Shown here: positions 4,486 to 35,744 of the stretch, piece by piece
Layout of the letters: every line of letters starts with the position of its first letter
Position numbering within the stretch: position 1 is the first letter of the stretch
Notes under the pieces: model-generated
The model's database searches: none
The model's input: only the letters and a program-made list of their open reading frames with translations
What the model was told of the DNA's origin: nothing
Position numbers and translations under genes: made by a program
From: Candidatus Heimdallarchaeota archaeon
GTDB taxonomy: Archaea > Asgardarchaeota > Heimdallarchaeia > Hodarchaeales > Hodarchaeaceae
Direction of reading: 5' to 3'
Assembly (NCBI GenBank): GCA_019057635.1
Contig: DXJL01000156.1
Coordinates: 1-64,000, forward strand
Length of the DNA: 64,000 bases

Positions 4486-6585
4486 GTGGGTCTAAAGCCA
4501 GAACGTATGAGTATTGCCAAAATTACAGTTGATCACGCAGCAGGCCGATCTTTTCTGAGTAATATTGGGGCTAAACTTGAGCTAGAATTAATTGATTTAG
4601 TAAAGACAATTAGTATTGAACCCAACCCCCCAACTAAGAAAGAATCCAAAACAATAGCATTATTAGAAGAATTTTCGCGCCTTACCGATTTAATTGATTC
4701 ATTATCACTTACAAATAAACGCCAGAAGATTGATCTTGAGCGAGATGAGCTGGAGGAGATAAATTTCGAGGCCGAAAAATTATTCGACCGAACTGGACAT
4801 ATTGTTGCCGAAGTTGAAAAACTTCAAGCTCAGAAACAAAATTTAAGCGTGGTTCGTACAGCAGTTCAATCCCTCGATGCATTACAGGGATTAGATATTC
4901 ACGATGTGCAAGATTTTGGAACTGGTACCCATTTTTATGCTGTTCTTGGTTTTCTTAAGGGAATTCACAGTTTTCGCTTAGAAATGGCTCTCGATCAGCT
5001 AACTGGTGGAGAATTCATCTATAAGCCTATCAGTTCAGATAAAACTAAAAATATTTGCTTGATTGGAGTTATGAAGCGATTTAGTGGTCCTTTGGATCGT
5101 CTTCTTAGTGGACTTGGGTTTGAACCAATCACTATTCCCCCGAAAATTGTTGGTCCACCTGAAGAAGCAAAGAAAAAGGCGAACGCTCTACTAGAGCACC
5201 TAGAATTAGATTATGTAACTCTTAAAGAGAAAATTAATTCTGAATTAGGGAATGAAATAAATAATATTCGAGCTATGACAGAACAGCTTGAGATTGAATC
5301 TACTCGAATTTCTCTTCTCCAGCGAAGTCAGTTAAAGAATGAGAAGTACATAATTTGGGCTTGGATTCCCAAAAGACAGATTAAATCACTTAAGCGGATG
5401 ACGGCTAAAATCGATTCTAGCATAACTTTGAATATCATTGCAAAGCCTAAGCTTCAAAGTGAGGAATTTCCTTCATCTATCCATAACAATATATATTCTC
5501 GCAATTATGAGGATCTAATTCATGGATTTGGAACCCCTGGATACAACGAATGGGATCCTACCAAGGTACTTAGCATTTTAATGCCCATTTTCTTTGGTAT
5601 TATGTTCGGAGATGTAGTAGATGGATTTATTGTTTTTCTAATTGGATTATATGGGTTATCATTGAGTAAAGAGAAGTACTCCACAAATTCAATGCTTTCA
5701 GAGCTTCAAACATACTTCGATAAAGGAGGGCCTATCTTAGTTACCTTTGGATTAACAGCAATGGTTTTTGGGTTTTTGTTTGGCAGTTTTCGTGGGTTAG
5801 GCGGGGAACACGCCCATCATCTCGGCCTTGAACCCTTGTGGTTTAGTCCAGAGGCTGAAGGAGGCCAGTTCGCATTATTGGAATTTGCGATCGTGCTAGG
5901 TATACTAGTAATTTCTCTTGCTTTGTTTATGCAGTTCATCAACCTGTTATCACACGACAAATGGGAAGCCATTTTTCTACCTGGGATGTTCTTAGTATTT
6001 TACATTTCACTTTCATTTTTGCTCTTTGCTTACGGTCCCGATCCAATGAAGTGGATTTCGGAAACTACTGGAAGTGTTGACTTACTCGCGTTACAAGAAA
6101 AAACTGCTCATAGTTTAATTGGTCATAATTTAGGTCTTGATTGGGTTGCTGACATGGGTATACCTGTGTTTGCTATTGGCCCTGTTAGTTATCCCATGTT
6201 CTTTTTACTCGTTTCATTTCTTTTAACGACAATATATCATTTCAAACATGGTATGGATGGCATGAGTGAATGGTTAGATTACACAATTACAATGATTTCG
6301 AATACAATATCATTTGCGAGGATATTCGCTTATAATATGGTTCATGGGTCATTATCCTTAGTTTTCATTCAAATTCTCGCTGGTAGCGGAGAAGGTTGGG
6401 CGGATGTATTACCAGGAATGATTATAGGAGCTCCAGTTGTTATCGGTTTAGAGTTACTCGTTTCATTCTTACAGTCCTTACGTCTCTGTTGGGTAGAATT
6501 TTTCGGAAAACTAGGTTATCAAGGAACTGGGCGTAAATTTATTCCATTTAAAGAAAACCGTTGGTTTACAGCAATTACAGGCTAA
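4486..6585 (+). CDS. atpI: A/V-type ATP synthase subunit I (a)
   Basis: P..Y.E.DPT, FFGIMFGD, essential Arg in SNTISFARI, LQSLRLCWVEFFGK. Start reassigned to GTG 4486, after a GAGGTGA RBS. Confidence 0.92.
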   Translation: MGLKPERMSIAKITVDHAAGRSFLSNIGAKLELELIDLVKTISIEPNPPTKKESKTIALLEEFSRLTDLIDSLSLTNKRQKIDLERDELEEINFEAEKLFDRTGHIVAEVEKLQAQKQNLSVVRTAVQSLDALQGLDIHDVQDFGTGTHFYAVLGFLKGIHSFRLEMALDQLTGGEFIYKPISSDKTKNICLIGVMKRFSGPLDRLLSGLGFEPITIPPKIVGPPEEAKKKANALLEHLELDYVTLKEKINSELGNEINNIRAMTEQLEIESTRISLLQRSQLKNEKYIIWAWIPKRQIKSLKRMTAKIDSSITLNIIAKPKLQSEEFPSSIHNNIYSRNYEDLIHGFGTPGYNEWDPTKVLSILMPIFFGIMFGDVVDGFIVFLIGLYGLSLSKEKYSTNSMLSELQTYFDKGGPILVTFGLTAMVFGFLFGSFRGLGGEHAHHLGLEPLWFSPEAEGGQFALLEFAIVLGILVISLALFMQFINLLSHDKWEAIFLPGMFLVFYISLSFLLFAYGPDPMKWISETTGSVDLLALQEKTAHSLIGHNLGLDWVADMGIPVFAIGPVSYPMFFLLVSFLLTTIYHFKHGMDGMSEWLDYTITMISNTISFARIFAYNMVHGSLSLVFIQILAGSGEGWADVLPGMIIGAPVVIGLELLVSFLQSLRLCWVEFFGKLGYQGTGRKFIPFKENRWFTAITG

Positions 6586-24854: not shown

Positions 24855-27659
24855 ATGAACGGCCAATGGAAAAATACTTTTGTTTCACTAAGCAACATTA
24901 GAAATAATCTTCTTGCGGTAAGTTCCACCTCAGATAATTCATCATATGACTTTGTAAATCAATATCTCTTACAAATGACAGTTTTATGGACTTTACAGAA
25001 ACATCGGTACTTCAATGATGATGAAAACTATTTTATTACGATGTTCCATTTAATTGAAAAGAATGATCAAAATATTCCTTTCAATACCTACAATGAGTTT
25101 ATAAATTCATTATTAATAGAATTGTCTTCACTGAATGATAATCATCTTAGCATAGATCAACGATTTGGGAGATTACGAGGCTGCAAATCTGCGATATTTA
25201 TCAATATCTCACTTTTACAAAAGAAAGCAAATTTCTCTAACGCAAGATACTACAATTCATTAAAATCGCTTTTGAGTGATAATGAAATTTCCAAGTCACT
25301 GGGAATATTAACAGTTCTTGATCGAATAGATTTTGAAATTAACGGAACATTTTTGGGATCCTTATATGAGTGGTTGATATCATCTAGAACCAAAAGGAAA
25401 GGTGGAGTATATTATACTCCCGTGGAACTAACAGCTTATATTTCGCGCTACTCAGTAAGAACGCTACTAATGGGTCAGTTGGGGGTTAAATCTAGATATT
25501 CACTTGATGCCTGGGTTACTTATTTCGAGTCCCTTGATAGCACTGGTTTATTAAGATTGTATGAAACATTAATTAATTTAACGATACTAGATCCCGCTGT
25601 TGGTACTGGACAATTCCTAGAAAGTGTTATTGACGAATTATTATCAATATATTCTAAGCTAGTCAGAAAATTTAAAGCTTTAAATCTGTCACTACCGCTC
25701 AATCTTATTACCAATCGATCTCATAACACTGGAAACCTAATCGATCTTACAAAGATTACAGATCAGACAGAATTTGAATTCTATCTATTAACACATCTGA
25801 TTTTTCCAAAATCATTATATGGAGTAGATATAGACCCTTTTGTTATTCCTTTCACAAAGACTCGGTTATTTATTTATGCTGCTCAACGAATTAACCATCA
25901 TGAGAAAGATTTTCATTTCATTAATCCATTCCAGTGTAATTTAAAGGTTGGAGATGCACTGTTGATGGCTTGGGAGGATTTCTTCCCAAAAACATTGACT
26001 AAGAAAAATAATTTCTCTCTTATTCTTACAAATCCCCCTTATATTGGAGAAAGTGACAATAAGGAACTATTTAGGAAATATTCGGTTGCTTTTCCTACGT
26101 ATTATGAGGGAAAACTCAACATTTGGTATCTATTTTTTCATTTAGCCCTTAATTTAGTTCAATCTGGAGGTATTGTATCTTTTTTAGTCTCTAATTATTG
26201 GTTGACTGCCTCAGGAGCTTCAAAATTACGTAAAAGAATGCTGGAAGAAACTTTTATATTAGAATTTATTGATTTTAAAGAAAATCGTTTGTTTAAAGGA
26301 GCTCAAGGTATTCATTCTAGTATAATAACCATAAAGAAACTGAAAAAGCACAATTCATCCATAAATTGTGTTTTCTATACAAAGAAAGAACCAGTGAACA
26401 GTCAACTTCTAAATAAAATGTCGGATCAATTGGTATTCCAAATTAACCAGAAAAATCTTACTTTACACAATTGGGATGACTATTTTCATTTTCTTCCTTC
26501 TGATGTCTCTCTCATACTGAATAATATGATTAATAAATCCTCTCCTCTTAAAACCTCCACCTACACAGTAAAAGAAGGCTTGATCACAGGTCTTAACAAG
26601 ATTACTAAACGTCAAATTGAGAAATATGGATACCCTATAACTTGGATAAATCGTGGCATATATGTGTTTGATAGTAAAAATAAAAATGACCAAAAGACTA
26701 TTCAGACATTTACAACTGAGGAAAATGAATATTTACGTCCTTTATACAAAAGTTCATCTATAGTGGATTATTCAACACGAGCTAAGACTGATCAACGCTT
26801 TCTTTATCTAGTAAGGAGAGATGTAGATATTTCCACAATCCCAAATATAAAAAAGCATCTTGAACAATACCAAACAGCTACGCACAATTCGTTAGATCAC
26901 CCTCCATATATTAATCGTCCTCGACAAAAAGACATCTTTCTCTCTCCAAAACTTGTGACTCCTCAAAGAGCACGGAAAACAAACTTTGGATACAGCTTTA
27001 CAGAATGGTTTGCTGCTCAAGATGTATATTTTATTCTCGAAGAGAGAAACTCAATTCAAAAATTGAAAATTCTCCTTATTCTTCTGCAATCGAAGGTATC
27101 TTTCTACTGGTTCTCTTGGATGGGGAAAAAAAAGGGCTCTCAGTTGGAGTTTTTTGGTGAGTCAGTTTCTAACTTTCCCATTCCTAAGAAATTGAATAAA
27201 GGAGATCTTCTAGCGCGGATCGCTGATTATTTAATTTTTCTGAACTCCTTTGAAAACAAGTCAAATGAATATGAACATATAAGGAGGTTTCTAGAAGAAG
27301 GAATCGCTAATGTTGTTGTTTATAAGAGTTATTTTAACGACTTAATTCTCACTTCTCCAAGTCAAAATCAACTTTACGAGGATGTTTGTGATTTTCTAGT
27401 TAAATCCCTCGAAGAAATTGACATAGAACATTTTTTAAAACTCCGACATGCCATTTCTGTCACAGAAAGTGTTACCACGACTAATAAGACAAACTTTATG
27501 GATTTAAAAGAGTCTATCTTATCTACAATTAATGCCTCCTTTCATAAATTAGTTTCTGATCAGAGGATTGAAAAACTGAACAGTGAAGTAAGCACAAGCC
27601 ATATTGTAGAACAGATTGGCAATTATTATGATTCTAAAAACATTAAAGATACAACATAG
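24855..27659 (+). CDS. Eco57I/TaqI-like gamma-class N6-adenine DNA methyltransferase with TRD; no evident nuclease domain
   Basis: GVYYTP, ILDPAVGTGQF, YGVDID, NPPY, TaqI-C-like C-terminal region. Confidence 0.88.
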   Translation: MNGQWKNTFVSLSNIRNNLLAVSSTSDNSSYDFVNQYLLQMTVLWTLQKHRYFNDDENYFITMFHLIEKNDQNIPFNTYNEFINSLLIELSSLNDNHLSIDQRFGRLRGCKSAIFINISLLQKKANFSNARYYNSLKSLLSDNEISKSLGILTVLDRIDFEINGTFLGSLYEWLISSRTKRKGGVYYTPVELTAYISRYSVRTLLMGQLGVKSRYSLDAWVTYFESLDSTGLLRLYETLINLTILDPAVGTGQFLESVIDELLSIYSKLVRKFKALNLSLPLNLITNRSHNTGNLIDLTKITDQTEFEFYLLTHLIFPKSLYGVDIDPFVIPFTKTRLFIYAAQRINHHEKDFHFINPFQCNLKVGDALLMAWEDFFPKTLTKKNNFSLILTNPPYIGESDNKELFRKYSVAFPTYYEGKLNIWYLFFHLALNLVQSGGIVSFLVSNYWLTASGASKLRKRMLEETFILEFIDFKENRLFKGAQGIHSSIITIKKLKKHNSSINCVFYTKKEPVNSQLLNKMSDQLVFQINQKNLTLHNWDDYFHFLPSDVSLILNNMINKSSPLKTSTYTVKEGLITGLNKITKRQIEKYGYPITWINRGIYVFDSKNKNDQKTIQTFTTEENEYLRPLYKSSSIVDYSTRAKTDQRFLYLVRRDVDISTIPNIKKHLEQYQTATHNSLDHPPYINRPRQKDIFLSPKLVTPQRARKTNFGYSFTEWFAAQDVYFILEERNSIQKLKILLILLQSKVSFYWFSWMGKKKGSQLEFFGESVSNFPIPKKLNKGDLLARIADYLIFLNSFENKSNEYEHIRRFLEEGIANVVVYKSYFNDLILTSPSQNQLYEDVCDFLVKSLEEIDIEHFLKLRHAISVTESVTTTNKTNFMDLKESILSTINASFHKLVSDQRIEKLNSEVSTSHIVEQIGNYYDSKNIKDTT

Positions 27660-27714: not shown

Positions 27715-28653
27715 TCAATTGAAATAGTAATCAAGAGATCGTATTTGATCTTGAGAGATAATATTTTTCATTCGTTTCTTAATTGATTTCACATAAGAAA
27801 CTTGCTCAATTTTTAGGCTATAATTCTGAGCTGTAAGAAATATCCAAACATTCCATAATGCCCGATTTATCCATCCTCGACTTCCTGGTTGCTGTAGTTG
27901 TGTAAAATTCTCAAGGAAAGGTGGTTTATACATATCAAACAGTTCCACAGTAAACCATTTCCTAGTTCTTGATGATTTCCTTACTCTAGGAACTGATCTA
28001 GAACCCTCAGGAGTATAACAATCTCCAATTGCAGCATTTCTCCTCCATCCAATCCAATCTATTGACTCAAGATACTTCCTGAAAGCCAATTGGTGAAAAG
28101 GACTCCCTAGCCCAAATCCATGAAATTTTTGGACAGTTATTGAACGAAATTTGGCTAACCAAGCAGCAACATCGAAAACACTTCCTTTCTCGTTAATTTT
28201 TAGCGGGGAAACCATTCCTCCCAATCCGATATTGGAGACTGAATAATCTACAGTATTAATTTTTGGAAAATGAACGACTGGTAAAATTGGATGATCAATA
28301 CTCTGCATTAGAGTCGACCAATTGCTAAAAGATTTGTACGGATTTCCGATGACATCAAGATTCACAATTAAATCACTGTCGTTTACCCCTATATTCTTAA
28401 GAAAATCAGTATAATTTTCTAACGAAATTGAGATTCCTGAATGATGTGCACTATAGGCACCAGAGTCAATCATTATAGGTCCGTCGAAAGAAAAGTAGTC
28501 ATGCAAACCTTTTGCTTTAATCCTTCGAAAGAACCTTCTAAACTGCCAATATGAAAACAATATTCCAGATTTTTTTTCATGCATGCATTGTCTAATTTCA
28601 TTTGCATGTACCCAAGGAAAAAATCCCTGTACAAAACCTAAGTATAATTTCAA
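27715..28653 (-). CDS. TGT/DpdA-like transglycosylase homolog 1
   Basis: IMIDSGAYS, NLDVI, LPVVH, IGLGGMV, FHGFG, SID: the TGT-barrel motif order. Confidence 0.75.
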   Translation of the reverse strand: MKLYLGFVQGFFPWVHANEIRQCMHEKKSGILFSYWQFRRFFRRIKAKGLHDYFSFDGPIMIDSGAYSAHHSGISISLENYTDFLKNIGVNDSDLIVNLDVIGNPYKSFSNWSTLMQSIDHPILPVVHFPKINTVDYSVSNIGLGGMVSPLKINEKGSVFDVAAWLAKFRSITVQKFHGFGLGSPFHQLAFRKYLESIDWIGWRRNAAIGDCYTPEGSRSVPRVRKSSRTRKWFTVELFDMYKPPFLENFTQLQQPGSRGWINRALWNVWIFLTAQNYSLKIEQVSYVKSIKKRMKNIISQDQIRSLDYYFN

Positions 28654-28769: not shown

Positions 28770-29243
28770 ATGTCACCATCGAAATACCTCCTCATTATCT
28801 CATGTGGGAAGAAAAAATCCGAGGAACTTAAACACCATGCTTTGAAAGCAGAGGAGGCATATAAAGGACCAATGTTTCAAGTCATAAACAAAGCGAAAAG
28901 GGAAAATAGGTGGGGAGATAATCTGAAACTAGGTATCGTTTCAGCAAAATATGGATTCTTACGAGCAAGTGACTTGATCACCTATTATGATCTTAAAATG
29001 ACAACAGCTATTGCCAAACAACTTCAATCGCAAGTAATTGAGAGCATTCAAAGTTGGCATGATGCTGAATTATTTTCATTAATATATGTGATCATGGGTA
29101 AGGATTATTTAGCAAGTGTGAAAGGATTGGAAAATTACATTAAAACAGATATCAGAATTGAAAATATGGGAGGATTAGGCATTGGACAGCGAAAACTCTT
29201 GGATTTCCTCAATTTATTAGATATTTCTGGTTTAGATTCGTGA
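28770..29243 (+). CDS. DUF6884/YaaA-like protein
   Basis: LIISCGKKK, AEEAYKG.MF, IVSAKYG, YDLKM, GLGIGQR. Confidence 0.72.
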   Translation: MSPSKYLLIISCGKKKSEELKHHALKAEEAYKGPMFQVINKAKRENRWGDNLKLGIVSAKYGFLRASDLITYYDLKMTTAIAKQLQSQVIESIQSWHDAELFSLIYVIMGKDYLASVKGLENYIKTDIRIENMGGLGIGQRKLLDFLNLLDISGLDS

Positions 29244-29255
29244 GGAGAAGAAAAA

Positions 29256-30317
29256 ATGAGCTTTGCTTTAGGAACTCCCATCAATGCTCGAACAAGACCT
29301 TGGAAATATGATTGGATTGTAAAACCTGATTCCTTGATGATCTCTGCTATCGATTTAATGGAAAATTCAAGTTTATTTGAGAAAATAAAGAAAATCGGGA
29401 TTCACGAGTATTTAGAATGGGACGGTCCTCTAGTCTGTGATTCTGGGGCGTTTTCTGCCATTAATCGGAAAAAGAAGATCAATGTTGAAATCGAACAATT
29501 AAAACTCTATTATCGAGAGTTAACAAGACAAGATCCAAATATTATCAAGATCACACTAGATTATCCTGATGAGAACATCCTCTCGAATTATCTAGAATTG
29601 CTTCCATATGAGGTCCAACCAGTCATTCCGTATAACCAATTACAGCTTTTGGAGCAAATTGCAACAGAATCTGGATTACCTGAATGGAGCTTCATTGGAC
29701 GCTTAGTTCCTTTAATGAGAGGAGGTAGTGGATATAAAAGTCGATTGTTTTCTGCTATCAACGATTTTAAAAACAAATTAGATGAATTTTCTTATAATGA
29801 AAAATGTAGAATATGGGCCTTGGGAGTAGGTGCACCTAGTATTCTGATCGAGGTATTAACAGCCGTGGATGGATGTGATTCATCTCGTTGGAGAATTACT
29901 GGCTCTAATATGATTTTACTTCCGCATGGAGGGGAACGGGGAGTTGGTAACAAGACTAAATGGAGGGGAACTCATCGTAGAATTACAGAGGGGGATGAAA
30001 AAATGTTGGTTTTACAGATTTTACAACAAATAGATACTCTCTCAGGAGGATTAGAAACTCTTGATAAATCATTATGGTTTAATAAGAATCCTAAACAACT
30101 TAAAAATCATTTTGAGGTAAATTTACCGAGTATTGGAGAGCTTATAGAAAAATTAAGAAACAATATTCAAACAATGACGGTTTACAACTTAGAATTGCTA
30201 TTAAGAAGTTCTGGAAATCTACGTCTTATATTCAATTACTTTGCTGCGTTGCATTACAAGCTAGAAGAAAGAGATAATACTAATTATGGGAACAATAATC
30301 CAAACTTCATAATCTAG
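29256..30317 (+). CDS. TGT/DpdA-like transglycosylase homolog 2
   Basis: GIHEYLEWDGPLVCDSGAFS (cf. GLHDYFSFDGPIMIDSGAYS in homolog 1), TLDYP, IGRLVP, WALGVG, CDSSRW. Confidence 0.72.
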   Translation: MSFALGTPINARTRPWKYDWIVKPDSLMISAIDLMENSSLFEKIKKIGIHEYLEWDGPLVCDSGAFSAINRKKKINVEIEQLKLYYRELTRQDPNIIKITLDYPDENILSNYLELLPYEVQPVIPYNQLQLLEQIATESGLPEWSFIGRLVPLMRGGSGYKSRLFSAINDFKNKLDEFSYNEKCRIWALGVGAPSILIEVLTAVDGCDSSRWRITGSNMILLPHGGERGVGNKTKWRGTHRRITEGDEKMLVLQILQQIDTLSGGLETLDKSLWFNKNPKQLKNHFEVNLPSIGELIEKLRNNIQTMTVYNLELLLRSSGNLRLIFNYFAALHYKLEERDNTNYGNNNPNFII

Positions 30318-30329
30318 AGAGGCTAATCA

Positions 30330-32747
30330 ATGAATAATCCGATTGAAAACAAAAAAGACTCCAAAATAAGATCAGGTTCCGATAATTTTTTTGAGAATCA
30401 GATTATTTACTGTCCAGAAACAGACAATCTCGATAGTAGCTTATCTCAACTGAAGAACAAAAGTCCTAGATTGATTATTCATGATATTTCTCATAATTTC
30501 TATCCACCAAAAGTACAATTGATTCCTAATAGAAGATTCAAAGGGAAGCACAATTGGAAGTCCACTCTTATCTATCATGACGAAATTTCTCTGGACGAAT
30601 TTTTGAATCAAATAACTAATATTTTCAAGATTTCCCGTTCTGTACTGAAATTGGATGGATTTTTAGCTGTTAAGGTGAATGGTTCGATCAAATCGTTTAT
30701 AAAAAAAATTTTGGATACTATCTTTTATCAAGAAAATTTTATGAACGAGATTATATTAAATTCCCCAATACAAATTCACTATTCCAAGGAAAGTGCATAC
30801 TTTGAGAGGACTGATTATTTCTTATTATATAGCTCTTCAAATCCTCAAAAAATAAATCCTGTGTATGATGAAAAGGAAAGTGGAGGGTACTGGCACTCAT
30901 TTATGTCCAAAGGACAAGGATCTCCGAAAAATTTTCTTATAAATGGTAAGATGGTTCTATTAAATCCCCCTAGTGGAACTCATTGGAAATTGAAACAGGA
31001 GTCCATACTTGAACTTTGTAAGAAAGGACAGATTCGATTGAATAGGAGAGGGAATCCTGAATATTGGGTACCACCTAAAATCGGACAAATAATAGATACG
31101 AATTGGCTCGATCTAGATATCCTTACAATGAGCAAAGGAAAAGATCGAAGTTCATATTATATGCGGCTCTTCCAGGTGTTATTGACATCAAAGCAACTTG
31201 TTGTCATTATAAACCCTAGAGATGTTAAATCTTTAATAGAAGCCTCTAACTTTGATTTAAATTGGATATGTTTGGTTGAGGATAAAAAAACAGTTGATGT
31301 CCTGAAATCTGAACTTATACAGGAAAATCTGAATTATTCAGTAGGGGTTGCCCAGAATTCAAAAGTTTCACATCTCGATTTGTACAAGATACCCTTACTC
31401 GAAGAACAGATAGAGGAATTACCTTCGTACAATGAGAAAATTAGTAAATTAAAACCTGTTTCAATGTATTCAAATGATACTAATAAAGAGATTCAAGCCG
31501 AGAATGAATTAGGTAATATATTAATTCAGGGGGATTGTCTCCATGTTTTACGTTTACTTCAGACAGAATACCATCAGGCTATAAAACTAATTTATATTGA
31601 TCCTCCCTTCTATACTGGAACCAATGAATTGCTATATATCCCCGTTCAAAAAAGAGATAATTCAAATGTTATACAAAACAATAAATCAGACATTTCGATA
31701 AAAACGGTGGCTTATGAAAATGTATTTACGAGTAACACGCCAATAGAAGACTTTAAACTCTGGTTCAGAAAACGTATTATTCTAATGAGGTCGTTATTAC
31801 GTCCAGATGGTTTTATATTTGTAAGATTTGATTATCATTTTGGCCACTATGCGAGGGAAGTTTTGAATGATATTTTTGGCCAGGAAAATTTTGAGATTGA
31901 ATTTATTATCCGTCGTATGAAAAAGAATTTATCAGAAAAGCAGTTAAATCAACAGACCCACTTAATTGTGCATTCTGATTCGTTATTCGTTTATCGTGGG
32001 AGCAAACAGGCAAAGCTTAGGCATGAAATGATAAAAAAGAGGAGCAGAAAGGGCCAAGATGAAGCAGAAATTGAGTATTCCAATGATAATCTGTGGATTG
32101 ACATTGCTGGATACCAAAAAGTAAAAAGAACTTTATATCCAACAGAAAATTCTGAAGTCTTATTAAAACGCATTATTGAAATTAGTACTTCAAAAAGTGA
32201 TATTATTGCTGATTTTTTTGCTGGGTCAGGGACTACACTCGCTATGGCAGAACAACATAAACGGAAATGGTTGGGTATTGACATTGGAATGTTATCCATC
32301 AATGAAATACGGAAAAGATTATTGAAGATAGAGGGAAGGAAACCATTTGCTTTTCATGAATTAATACTGAAACCTAATAACCGTAAATCCGACAAAAATA
32401 GGAAATTTGGTTTTAATATAAACGTCAGCAAACATCCAGTTGCTCAAGGGACTGAAATAGTGTTAACATTAATAAATTTGCTGCACACCCCTCCATTGAG
32501 TAAATTACAACATTATTCATATTTAAACTTGATCGATTATTGGGAAATTGATTGGTATTATAATAAATCAATGGCAAATATAGGATGGTATTCTTATAGG
32601 CAAATAATAAGAAAGGAGGTAGAAAAGACCGTCGCAGTTTCCGCTTGTCATGAATATTCGCATTCTGGGGAATATAACATTTGGATAAATGTCATTGATA
32701 TCTTTGGAAATTCTCATCATAAGACAATCAAAATTGATTTACTATAA
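30330..32747 (+). CDS. Mod-like beta-class DNA methyltransferase with a degenerate N-terminal duplicate MTase domain
   Basis: The C half has LIQGDCL, IYIDPPF, YPT and DFFAGSGTT. The N half repeats the scaffold without the catalytic motifs. The C-terminal IDYW...VIDIFGN domain is present. Confidence 0.85.
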   Translation: MNNPIENKKDSKIRSGSDNFFENQIIYCPETDNLDSSLSQLKNKSPRLIIHDISHNFYPPKVQLIPNRRFKGKHNWKSTLIYHDEISLDEFLNQITNIFKISRSVLKLDGFLAVKVNGSIKSFIKKILDTIFYQENFMNEIILNSPIQIHYSKESAYFERTDYFLLYSSSNPQKINPVYDEKESGGYWHSFMSKGQGSPKNFLINGKMVLLNPPSGTHWKLKQESILELCKKGQIRLNRRGNPEYWVPPKIGQIIDTNWLDLDILTMSKGKDRSSYYMRLFQVLLTSKQLVVIINPRDVKSLIEASNFDLNWICLVEDKKTVDVLKSELIQENLNYSVGVAQNSKVSHLDLYKIPLLEEQIEELPSYNEKISKLKPVSMYSNDTNKEIQAENELGNILIQGDCLHVLRLLQTEYHQAIKLIYIDPPFYTGTNELLYIPVQKRDNSNVIQNNKSDISIKTVAYENVFTSNTPIEDFKLWFRKRIILMRSLLRPDGFIFVRFDYHFGHYAREVLNDIFGQENFEIEFIIRRMKKNLSEKQLNQQTHLIVHSDSLFVYRGSKQAKLRHEMIKKRSRKGQDEAEIEYSNDNLWIDIAGYQKVKRTLYPTENSEVLLKRIIEISTSKSDIIADFFAGSGTTLAMAEQHKRKWLGIDIGMLSINEIRKRLLKIEGRKPFAFHELILKPNNRKSDKNRKFGFNINVSKHPVAQGTEIVLTLINLLHTPPLSKLQHYSYLNLIDYWEIDWYYNKSMANIGWYSYRQIIRKEVEKTVAVSACHEYSHSGEYNIWINVIDIFGNSHHKTIKIDLL

Positions 32748-33383: not shown

Positions 33384-33839
33384 TTGAGATTAAGGATTGT
33401 TTATCGAGTGACTGTGTTTGAGGATGCTCATGGGTACTTAAATAGCTCTATTAGGGTTTACGTAAACGCAACCACTACACTTGATAAGTTATTTGCGGTT
33501 AAACTCGTGGTACTAAGCATGATCATCGCTGTTGATGCTTTGATGGAAGGTGTTGGCGCAAAATCAAATACTTCATTCCAAAGTCACTTTGAGGATTCCA
33601 ATTTCTTTTTACCACTGGCTGCATATGAACAACGTATCACAGAGTTGCAATTGCTTGAAGAACAAAATTCTCAAATCAAAGATTTATCATTAGCCATACG
33701 TTTACAACAATCCATTCACACGTTAAAGTTTGTATATGGCAAACATGGCTTTCGATCGCTGTTGTCCTTGAACATTAAAGATTTTATCAACAACGCCATG
33801 TTTTTTATTTTAGAAATAAAAGAATTGGTGGAGACATAA
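33384..33839 (+). CDS. Hypothetical protein (start uncertain)
   Basis: 151-codon ORF filling the gap; no recognised motif. Confidence 0.4.
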   Translation: MRLRIVYRVTVFEDAHGYLNSSIRVYVNATTTLDKLFAVKLVVLSMIIAVDALMEGVGAKSNTSFQSHFEDSNFFLPLAAYEQRITELQLLEEQNSQIKDLSLAIRLQQSIHTLKFVYGKHGFRSLLSLNIKDFINNAMFFILEIKELVET

Positions 33840-35306: not shown

Positions 35307-35744
35307 CTATATTTCATCGTCTAAACAGATATTACAATTTTCGTGGGTAATTCCATATTGTCGGTGATATTTACACAAAAATTTGCCGTTATCTATAAAT
35401 TTTAGAATTCGTTGGACTTCACGTGGGGCGTAGCTATCTTCCTCTGCAATTCGGCGTGCAGACTCAAGAATTTCAGTCGTTACTTCTGGCTCAAAGGTAA
35501 CTTTGTTCCCACGGGTATTTTTTTTCCCCTCTTTATCCTTATATTGTGAGATAGCTGGTTCTGTGAGTCTGAATTTTTTAGCAATTTCTGTTTGAGGCAT
35601 GTGATGTTCATTAATAAGCGTATTTGTTAACACGCGACGGATGGCGGGAAGAACGTACCATACAATTACCTCTTGGGGTTGTACGAGTTTTTTCAACCGT
35701 TTGGGCCCTGTTTTAATATTAGTTTTAGTACCGGACATATCCAT
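35307..35744 (-). CDS. Archaeal HTH transcriptional regulator with C-terminal Cys/His motif
   Basis: PQEVIVWYVLPAIR, QTEIA...LTEPAISQY, C..H......C..C. Confidence 0.8.
   Translation of the reverse strand: MDMSGTKTNIKTGPKRLKKLVQPQEVIVWYVLPAIRRVLTNTLINEHHMPQTEIAKKFRLTEPAISQYKDKEGKKNTRGNKVTFEPEVTTEILESARRIAEEDSYAPREVQRILKFIDNGKFLCKYHRQYGITHENCNICLDDEI

Follow-up and report, generated by a model that had tools for sequence, protein, structure and literature searches.

In the EcoP15I Mod2 dimer the two subunits carry out different tasks: ModA reads the DNA and ModB methylates it, one subunit being geometrically unable to do both, and the C-terminal domain (CTD) of the recognition subunit contacts the restriction subunit Res (PMC4490356, in part). 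Beta-class methyltransferases (MTases) in general form homodimers or heterodimers with a division of labour, and the arrangement in trans has been generalised to the class, some members of which act on RNA; in METTL3-METTL14, and likewise in MTA1-MTA9, the active subunit has as its partner a paralog with an eroded motif IV (PMC7544214, in part). The subject of this analysis is a gene at positions 30330..32747 (+) of a 64,000-nucleotide stretch of DNA (hereafter the window; contig DXJL01000156.1, positions 1 to 64,000, assembly GCA_019057635.1) from Candidatus Heimdallarchaeota archaeon, which encodes a tandem beta-class MTase of 805 residues. An earlier note on this DNA, made from the letters alone, had suggested that the asymmetry of EcoP15I Mod2 and of the active/inactive METTL3-METTL14 pair, both of which are described in print as the note had stated (PMC4490356 and PMC7544214, each in part), is hard-wired here in one polypeptide. 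That proposal is supported by the systematic complementary loss of elements from the two copies, by the fold of the N-terminal half and by the selection acting on its insert. On the comparative evidence the gene probably encodes a single-chain protein that descends from a type III Mod dimer and has no Res; in it, the insert of the N-terminal copy would read DNA in trans for the C-terminal copy. The same recognition/catalysis pair also occurs as separate genes in other Asgard metagenome-assembled genomes (MAGs), which adds to what the earlier note had proposed.

The Mod proteins of EcoP15I (PDB entry 4zcf), 6k0w and 7dsu share the Pfam family and the motif order of the tandem and are the best sequence and fold matches of both its halves. 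EcoP15I Mod2 is made of identical subunits that are asymmetric only on DNA, whereas the asymmetry of the tandem is genetically fixed in one chain; furthermore, no Res was found for the tandem and its putative recognition copy has no C-terminal domain. CcrM, M.BceJIV, MboIIA and RsrI are like the tandem in being Res-less, in sharing its fold and in forming dimers with unequal roles (PMC7544214, in part), and they are lineage-conserved adenine MTases just as the tandem is lineage-conserved. In contrast to the fused tandem they are homodimers of fully equipped subunits, none of them a fused pseudo-dimer in the available part of the class review (PMC7544214), and CcrM carries an extra C-terminal non-specific DNA-binding domain. 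The logic of METTL3-METTL14 and MTA1-MTA9, an active plus an inactive paralog, matches that of the N-type and C-type pair described below, but these enzymes belong to the MT-A70 family, which the N half resembles in fold at Z ~12 as against 19 for its closest matches, and they bind nucleic acids by zinc fingers or extra subunits and not by an insert in the dead paralog. No MT-A70 family is found among the Pfam matches of the tandem, at E<=0.01 for the whole protein or E<=10 for the halves. M.FokI is a tandem two-domain MTase in which both domains are active and each methylates one strand; tandems of this type have two MTase domains per chain as here, with the difference that one of the two is a pseudo-enzyme in the present protein. 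According to a survey, fusions of two MTase domains are among the sequences in REBASE (PMC10609329). No reader/catalyst pair of the PF01555 family, fused or paralogous, is described in the available part of the class review (PMC7544214) or in the literature searched, outside which lie most subscription journals and REBASE itself.

An internal duplication with two methyltransferase folds

The gene and its protein can be divided into the following features, all on the forward strand:
30330..32747 (+), whole MTase gene, an intact open reading frame (ORF) of 805 residues, made up of a pseudo-enzyme N copy, an active-looking C copy and a C-terminal beta domain
30393..30755 (+), first half of the N copy core, residues 22-142 (equivalents of motifs IV-VIII), with a secondary structure that parallels the C copy
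30756..31115 (+), N copy insert at the position of the target recognition domain (TRD), residues 143-262, SGGYWH..PPxGTHWKLKQ..IRLN..GNPEYWV..IDxNWLD
31116..31364 (+), second half of the N copy core, residues 263-345 (equivalents of motifs X and I-III), without YPTENSE and without FxGxG
31365..31511 (+), linker between the copies, residues 346-394, mean conservation 0.30 and mostly of low confidence
31512..31913 (+), first half of the C copy core, residues 395-528, with motif IV D424-P-P-F427 at nucleotides 31599-31610
31914..32117 (+), shortened insert of the C copy, residues 529-596, some 55 residues short of the length seen in the N copy and in ordinary Mods
32118..32375 (+), second half of the C copy core, residues 597-682, with motif X YPTENSE at 603-609 and motif I F630-A-G-S-G634 at nucleotides 32217-32231
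32403..32744 (+), C-terminal all-beta domain, residues 692-805 (IDYWEIDW...VIDIFGN), strands only in the model

The whole protein scores 130.8 bits with PF01555 (N6_N4_Mtase; cut-off 26.7 bits), with a strong stretch at residues 418-654, and its best NCBIfam matches are adenine-specific enzymes, every one of them far under its equivalog cut-off. The strings quoted in the earlier note are all present in the translation, and the internal duplication that they were taken to indicate is borne out by a BLASTP comparison of residues 1-370 with residues 371-805, which share 37% identity over 43 residues (E 2e-6). SVLKLDGFLAV..KKILDTIFYQENFMNEII at residues 103-141 pairs with SLLRPDGFIFV..REVLNDIFGQENFEIEFI at residues 487-525, and DTNWLDL (residues 256-262) with DNLWIDI (residues 586-592); the motif I position is occupied by IINPRDVKSL (residues 293-302) in the N copy and by DFFAGSGTTL (residues 628-637) in the C copy, and the insert stretch PPSGTHWKLKQE...GQIRLNRRGNP of the N copy corresponds to residues 213-243. 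Searched alone, the C half matches PF01555 with 116.1 bits and the N half, at residues 81-183 and over family positions 18-111, with 24.4 bits (E 3.3e-5), slightly below the cut-off. A search of PDB sequences returns Mod 6k0w (E 2.8e-18) and EcoP15I Mod 4zcf (E 1.4e-15), which cover the motif I stretch of the C copy, while the match to the Mbo45V Mod chain 7dsu (E 4.9e-7) lies in the N half, at residues 8-169. The N and C halves align onto one and the same domain of the single-domain relatives, where query residues ~91-270 and ~392-673 land in the same region.

The AlphaFold2 (AF2) model of the full-length protein, built from a 29-sequence alignment with a mean predicted local distance difference test score (pLDDT) of 78.9 and a predicted template modelling score (pTM) of 0.81, shows a matching succession of strands and helices in both halves; pLDDT falls below 50 in the linker, at residues 345-370 and 386-392. 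The beta-class motif order (IV, insert/TRD, X, I) is present in the C copy, and the N copy has the same order of elements without the motifs, the helix and strand pattern of its second core half still resembling that of the C copy in the AF2 models. The N half modelled alone from 19 sequences (pLDDT 80.8, pTM 0.73) was compared with solved chains by VIA-align and Foldseek, in alignments that span model residues 1-324. The VIA-align results, with root-mean-square deviation (rmsd), are:
MboIIA 1g60, Z 19.3, 224 residues aligned, rmsd 4.1
Mod 6k0w, Z 19.3, 219 residues aligned, rmsd 3.0
CcrM 6pbd, Z 19.1, 217 residues aligned, rmsd 3.6
Mbo45V Mod 7dsu, Z 18.9, 226 residues aligned, rmsd 3.4
EcoP15I Mod 4zcf, Z 18.9, 289 residues aligned, rmsd 9.1
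Foldseek matches the N half to 6k0w at E 4.6e-12 and to EcoP15I Mod 4zcf at E 4e-11, and the full-length model to 6k0w at E 1.1e-15. The N half has a complete beta-class fold, at Z 19 to MboIIA, Mod and CcrM, and the objection that it might not be of MTase fold at all is answered by the Z values of about 19 and the Foldseek matches of its model. The C-terminal beta domain is common to the tandem, to single-domain Mods and to the stand-alone N-type and C-type proteins in the alignments. A 103-residue ORF on the opposite strand at 31991-32302 (-), inside the MTase gene, is most likely no gene, and its apparent homologs in other loci are accounted for by its overlap with the conserved motif X and motif I region.

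Complementary losses and the predicted packing of the two copies

When aligned with single-domain relatives, both copies follow one domain plan, DPPF...FGxxNF...large insert...NWxDI...YPTENSE...FxGSGTT, from which each has lost a different part. As the earlier note had recognised, the N copy has lost DPPF and FxGxG, with D52-I-S-H at the DPPF site and IINPRDVKS where DFFAGSGTT is expected, and nothing is found at the position of YPTENSE (motif X); its TRD-like insert is kept, with SGGYWH, PPSGTHWKLKQ, IRLN, GNPEYWV and IDTNWLD all in place. The C copy has kept DPPF, YPTENSE and FAGSG, and most of its insert is replaced by a gap, so that in this protein the segment from FGxxNF to NWxD measures 119 residues in the N copy and 65 in the C copy. 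Over a 57-row alignment, with insert length taken as the residues between FGxxNF and NWxD, the counts are:
Tandem N copies (n=13): DPP[FYH] in 0, motif X in 0, FxGxG in 2, insert of 118-141 residues
Tandem C copies (n=13): DPP[FYH] in 13, motif X in 12, FxGxG in 13, insert of 64-65 residues
Ordinary Mods (n=18): DPP[FYH] in 18, motif X in 18, FxGxG in 18, insert of 113-168 residues
The family comprises about 55 full-length homologs of 745-867 residues. Among 29 full-length members neither DPP[FY] nor FxGxG occurs in any N copy (0/29 for each), and motif IV of the C copy reads DPPF in 27, DPPY in one and DPPH in one.

Conservation over the same 29 sequences is distributed in a corresponding manner. 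It is highest in the N insert, where the mean top-residue frequency is 0.76 and 30 of 120 columns are invariant (25%), and the two halves of the N core are weakly conserved (0.47 and 0.42, with 4 of 121 and 1 of 83 columns invariant, or 3% and 1%); the C core is tight (0.65 and 0.71, with 19% and 22% of columns invariant). In three close pairs, where the counts are small, the N core has a ratio of non-synonymous to synonymous substitution rates (dN/dS) of 0.31-0.46, compared with 0.13-0.36 in the N insert and 0.15-0.21 in the C core. Since the values for the N core remain below 0.5, it is still constrained, as a scaffold would be. The pattern supports the proposed roles, as it would place selection on the insert in the N copy and on the catalytic core in the C copy.

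The pTM of 0.81 for the full-length model implies a defined arrangement of the halves. When the C half (residues 371-690) and the N half (residues 22-345) were co-folded as separate chains alongside three controls, they reached an interaction prediction score from aligned errors (ipSAE) of 0.84 (0.81-0.85 between runs), compared with 0.00 for the best control; the mark used for this score is attained by 116 of 157 solved complexes as against 2 of 215 mismatched pairs. At least 89% of contacts are common to the runs, with a partner pLDDT of 81 or more. The interface is formed by C residues 502-510, 518-526, 531-549 and 559-590 and N residues 118-129, 134-161, 166-183 and 254-261, which include equivalent pieces of the two copies, namely the helix after strand 5 (N 118-129, C 502-510), FGxxNF with strand 6 (N 134-142, C 518-526) and then the strands that follow. 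Such homologous interface pieces would be expected if a homodimer had given rise to a pseudo-two-fold dimer. Deletion of the insert from the sole active copy, together with strong selection on the insert of the dead copy, would be sensible only if the insert acts in trans, and this geometry is favoured because the EcoP15I TRD lies too far from its own active site (PMC4490356, in part).

Relatives, stand-alone proteins and distribution

A scan with one genome per species yielded 62 loci, of which L001-L020 carry the tandem and the remaining 42 (L021-L062) single-domain proteins of ~610-750 residues from bacteria, the candidate phyla radiation (CPR) and Thermoplasmata. The N insert is homologous to the insert of these proteins in the alignment. 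A large ORF adjoining the MTase carries ResIII (PF04851) in all 11 of the 42 single-domain loci tested, lying downstream in at least 10 of them (those other than L040) and having an RE_endonuc domain as well in one; the single-domain relatives are on this account ordinary type III Mod subunits. The best PADLOC model for the tandem is MTase_III (E 1.4e-51). With the L022 Res as query, no Res homolog is found in the window's own genome (3.19 Mb, 91.6% complete), in which the tandem gene is single copy, nor is there a Res among the neighbours of the MTase in the window, the next gene being UPF0047. The tandem thus shows kinship to characterised type III Mods and no adjacent res, and the motifs and full TRD that each subunit of a Mod homodimer carries are here split between the copies.

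Proteins that correspond to only one of the two copies occur in other genomes. Six Asgard-labelled C-type proteins (P0062-64 and P0066-68) of 551-605 residues are 44-49% identical to the C copy; their insert deletion has the same boundaries as in the tandem C copy, and they keep a middle domain of ~160 residues that the tandem is without. A profile of the N half searched against 1.84 billion representatives gave 3962 matches at E<=0.001, 38 of them at E<=1e-30, which include four complete stand-alone N-type proteins, P0132 (583 residues), P0137 (599), P0138 (590) and P0139 (582), and further tandems (P0129, P0130, P0131 and P0135). The stand-alone N-type proteins have a degenerate motif IV (DLPF, ELPY, DLPA or NLTH) and no motif X, and possess the full insert, the middle domain and the C-terminal domain. 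Three shorter N-type sequences of 310-342 residues come from contigs of 1.3-2.1 kb and may be fragments. The stand-alone N-type proteins were found by the profile search alone, as a word-indexed search with the N half returned nine proteins, all partial tandem fragments, and no stand-alone partner.

Searches with individual members gave little beyond the tandems. Across the phylum, P0064 matches tandem C copies and one ordinary Mod in G001 only, and P0139 matches tandem N copies and G286 only, where two ORFs (685 and 503 residues) that had been considered as stand-alone forms proved to be ordinary Mods with all motifs; P0063 has no match at E 1e-100 across 83 genomes of the class. In metagenome contigs, the stand-alone C-type alignment found 79 loci, of which only L081 is close (53% identity), and this candidate for a stand-alone C-type locus is another tandem locus with the same neighbours. 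The 31 pattern matches of the N-half profile in viral contigs contain no relative. P0139 (MCY3414713.1) and P0063 (MCY3414527.1) have accessions from one block on different contigs, a hint that a single MAG may encode both types, unlinked.

In a quick maximum-likelihood tree of 57 rows and 360 columns, with support from the Shimodaira-Hasegawa-like approximate likelihood ratio test (SH-aLRT), the N-type rows (13 tandem and 7 stand-alone) all lie on one side of a branch with support of 100, the C-type rows (13 tandem and 6 stand-alone) all lie on one side of another with support of 99, and the 18 Mods form a third group (94). Subclades are mirrored between the N-type and C-type parts: seven tandems of the window's own family (99 and 96), P0056 with P0129 (100 and 99), and seven rows comprising P0060, P0131, P0135 and four stand-alone proteins (89 and 96). 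This mirroring suggests a single duplication and a single division of roles, after which the partners would have co-evolved, fusing or splitting on several occasions, and the separate N-type and C-type proteins in other Asgard MAGs would mean that the split of roles predates the fusion or alternates with it.

The tandem is concentrated in one family. In a phylum sample of 301 genomes it is present, in full or cut by a contig end, in 18 of the 20 other genomes of the window's family (f1, Hodarchaeales by NCBI labels), while among 280 genomes of 29 other families no match starts before query residue 312. At the level of the class, 22 of 83 representative genomes belong to f1, the window's own included. 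The nearest locus, L001, encodes a protein 94% identical, and the close homologs are labelled Hodarchaeales, Hodarchaeota or Heimdallarchaeota at NCBI. Over the tandem-bearing MAGs the NCBI labels vary, and extend to Hodarchaeales, Heimdall-, Prometh-, Thor-, Hermod-, Odin- and Sigynarchaeota and one Bathyarchaeota. The two f1 genomes without the tandem are G217, which is 71% complete, and G241, in which loss of the gene can be ruled out because a gap of 100 N sits where it should follow its upstream neighbour, the gene of TGT-like protein 2 described below. This gap (L160, G241:C1, 9606-9705) fuses the 3' part of that neighbour to an unrelated frame, carbamoyltransferase-like as named by eye from its sequence, and so creates a false ORF of 574 residues; the nominally single-contig genome G241 is a scaffold with gaps.

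The MTase ORF is intact in every full-length locus, and UPF0047, a 151-residue ORF, the gene of transcription factor B (TFB) and an HflX-like GTPase are syntenic with it in 15-19 of 20 loci, which fits vertical inheritance within the family. In view of its near-universal, syntenic presence in one family and its lack of a Res, we read the tandem as a putative domesticated orphan MTase with a housekeeping or epigenetic role rather than as a defence gene.

It is proposed that duplication of an ancestral Mod, a member of the YPTENSE/GYW(H/R) subfamily, gave two copies that took on complementary roles. The N-type copy would have lost motif IV, motif X and, in this protein, the S-adenosylmethionine (SAM) loop while retaining its fold, the surface used for dimerisation and the large insert in the place of the TRD, and the C-type copy would have kept all catalytic and SAM-binding motifs while losing about 55 residues of its insert. 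In the lineage of the window the two would then have been fused, with N packing on C as a pseudo-dimer within one chain, by way of the same elements of each copy, namely the helix that follows strand 5 and the region of strands 6-7. If EcoP15I Mod2 is taken as a guide, the insert of the N copy may read the DNA and present the target base to the pocket of the C copy, which would then most likely make N6-methyladenine from SAM. Trans geometry, DNA as the substrate, N6 of adenine as the target and specificity for a sequence are all predictions of this scheme. As far as the sequences and models can tell, the tandem would fix in the genome the allocation of tasks known from Mod2, in fused form in one Asgard family and as separate genes in others, and this description is supported.

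The genomic neighbourhood and competing explanations

Three genes upstream of the MTase encode proteins related to tRNA-guanine transglycosylase (TGT) or containing DUF6884:
29256..30317 (+), TGT-like protein 2 of 353 residues, 12 nucleotides upstream of the MTase, with the motifs DSGAFSA, LD, GVGAP and DGCDS
28770..29243 (+), DUF6884 protein of 157 residues, separated from TGT-like-2 by a gap of 12 nucleotides, with CGKKK (CxxxK) and VSAKYG (LSAxxG-like)
27715..28653 (-), TGT-like protein 1 of 312 residues, divergently oriented
The DUF6884 protein matches PF21818 with 44.9 bits and the PADLOC model of DpdC at E 1.9e-5; CxxxK and LSAxxG motifs have been described for the DUF6884 family (PMC11701544, in part), and DUF6884 is a domain of DpdC (preprint 10.1101/2025.02.24.639861, in part). 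In Salmonella, DpdA and DpdB put preQ0 into DNA and DpdC turns preQ0 into its amide (PMC10164549, in part). TGT-like-1 matches PHROG 887, 'queuine tRNA-ribosyltransferase', over residues 21-290 (E 5.8e-18) and has orthologs of at least 47% identity in 13 of 20 loci. TGT-like-2 gives weak TGT matches in Pfam and NCBIfam, and its DSGAFSA and DGCDS motifs presumably correspond to the catalytic aspartates of TGT; in the Atlas, which serves here as a lead only, it lies closest to viral TGT-like clusters, with one of DpdA at 0.91, and its profile finds nothing among PDB sequences beyond chance level (E 0.06 and 0.42). A canonical arcTGT is encoded on another contig of the genome (507.7 bits), which makes TGT-like-1 and TGT-like-2 extra paralogs, and QueC gives two weak partial matches only in the window's own genome (28-32 bits).

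The neighbours resemble the Dpd module (DpdA/DpdB/DpdC) in combining TGT-like and DUF6884 proteins and differ from it in that none matches DpdA in Pfam or PADLOC, while DpdB and the dpdD-K restriction genes are absent from the seven window proteins scanned with PADLOC, the rest of the genome not having been searched. The DUF6884 and TGT-like-2 genes stand beside the tandem in 17 of 20 loci, and two of the three exceptions have nearly no upstream DNA; TGT-like-2 is present in 19 of 20 f1 and in both f2 genomes, and weakly elsewhere. In about seven loci a gene of ~430 residues lies between TGT-like-2 and the MTase, and encodes a transporter of the major facilitator superfamily (MFS) in the three tested (L005, L007 and L010); in the same subclade a DUF362 gene precedes DUF6884 in both loci tested (L007:3882-4799 and L020:4037-4927), and L015 has an EamA-type transporter upstream (5316-6374). 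The presence of transporters next to TGT-like genes may be a sign of base salvage, and the two TGT-like proteins with the DUF6884 protein could make up a module for 7-deazaguanine in DNA, or for salvage, that has no DpdB and is confined to this Asgard order. The adjacency of the module to the MTase makes a functional link between them possible, and it is held at that level since the MFS gene intervenes in some loci and neither TGT-like nor DUF6884 proteins are found beside single-domain Mods at BLASTP E<1e-3.

Other features of the locus may be mentioned here. A 934-residue gamma-class MTase at 24855-27659 (+), 2.7 kb upstream of the tandem, is of Eco57I/MmeI type with TaqI_C; its best PADLOC match is a type IIG restriction endonuclease-MTase, with a weak match to PglX, and no nuclease domain is recognised in its first ~230 residues. 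This IIG-like gene is a variable neighbour, found in 8 of 20 syntenic loci. Downstream of the tandem, the 151-residue ORF at 33384-33839 (+) is conserved in 19 of 20 syntenic loci and has no Pfam or PADLOC match, the TFB gene follows 1.1 kb from the MTase, and a 145-residue ORF at 35307-35744 (-) is conserved in 16 of 20.

Several observations weigh against a single-chain reader and catalyst of the Mod2 kind. The C copy of P0056 and P0129 has DPPH in place of DPPF/Y, and FxGxG is retained in 2 of 13 tandem N copies and in 4 of 7 stand-alone N-type rows, so that SAM binding by those members is possible. The N insert is conserved across phyla at ~30% identity, unlike the hypervariable TRDs of many type III Mods, and may be partly structural. 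The co-fold score may reflect a memory of the solved beta-class dimers in the PDB, and the proposed facing of the insert towards the C pocket, as in EcoP15I Mod2, would follow from the pattern of losses and the list of interface residues. Stand-alone C-type proteins with a short insert exist, and a C-type protein may be able to work without an N-type partner. The last observation, with the conservation of the insert across phyla and the MTase gene lying 12 nucleotides downstream of the TGT-like-2/DUF6884 pair with the same neighbours in most loci, would suit an insert that acts as a docking or sensing module for the TGT-like or DUF6884 proteins or for a modified base, the C copy finding its substrate through its remnant insert and the beta domain. 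This is unlikely, as the same insert is present in Res-linked Mods that have no such neighbours, the ~430-residue gene separates TGT-like-2 from the MTase in about seven loci, and the mirrored N-type and C-type trees fit an obligate pair. The operon-like setting with DpdA-like and DpdC-like genes might also suggest that the substrate is not N6 of adenine in DNA; the family PF01555 includes both N6 and N4 enzymes, and, with RNA among the substrates of the class (PMC7544214, in part), N4 of cytosine, RNA or the exocyclic amine of a 7-deazaguanine made by the neighbouring TGT-like enzymes would be candidates. Motif IV is, however, DPPF/DPPY in 28 of 29 members and DPPH in one, the best NCBIfam and PDB matches are adenine-specific and the nearest relatives are Res-linked DNA Mods, which leaves another substrate quite improbable. 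DpdM, the only dPreQ1 methyltransferase described in the available part of PMC10516641, is a metal protein of the DUF3109 family and was for that reason discarded as a possible model of the tandem.

Descent from type III Mods and the type IIG/PglX-like MTase at 24855-27659 could be taken to mean that the tandem is still the modification half of a restriction system whose nuclease lies elsewhere or is unrecognisable. This is very improbable given that the genome has no homolog of a Res of the cognate type, that the locus is syntenic with TFB, UPF0047 and the HflX-like GTPase, unlike mobile defence islands, and that the IIG-like gene is shared by only 8 of 20 loci; moreover, the recognition subunit of EcoP15I contacts Res through its CTD (PMC4490356, in part) and the N copy has no C-terminal domain, if the beta domain of the tandem may be taken as the counterpart of that CTD. 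That the N half is a decaying relic of the duplication with no function of its own is hardly credible: the loss of all its catalytic motifs and the weak conservation of its core would be expected of a relic, but no other part of the protein is conserved as strongly as its insert, every N region has a dN/dS under 0.5 in three pairs, the ORF is uninterrupted wherever the locus is complete, and stand-alone N-type proteins of 582-599 residues are maintained as separate genes.

The trans model, in which one subunit reads and the other methylates, rests on few DNA-bound structures, and the tandem may be regarded as an evolutionary dissection of it: the loss of the insert from the catalytic copy and of the chemistry from the reading copy, with both under selection, would be independent comparative support for a trans mechanism. 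The tandem would also provide a natural single-chain scaffold in which recognition and catalysis can be mutated separately without the symmetry problem of a homodimer, which would be useful for engineering specificity. A more ambitious proposal, tentative and on balance doubtful, is that Asgard archaea have an obligate two-paralog DNA adenine writer composed of a dead reader and a reader-less catalyst, encoded by two genes or fused; in Hodarchaeales it would be a core chromosomal enzyme co-transcribed with a DpdA/DpdC-like module, marking the cell's own DNA by two chemistries without a restriction partner, and would be the counterpart of eukaryotic N6-methyladenosine (m6A) writer pairs by convergence or deeper kinship. 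Hodarchaeales are often discussed as the closest sampled relatives of eukaryotes. With no claim of common descent, the active/inactive writer pairs that are the rule in eukaryotes, such as METTL3-METTL14 and MTA1-MTA9, may have an analogue here in a fused form that is near-universal in one Asgard family.

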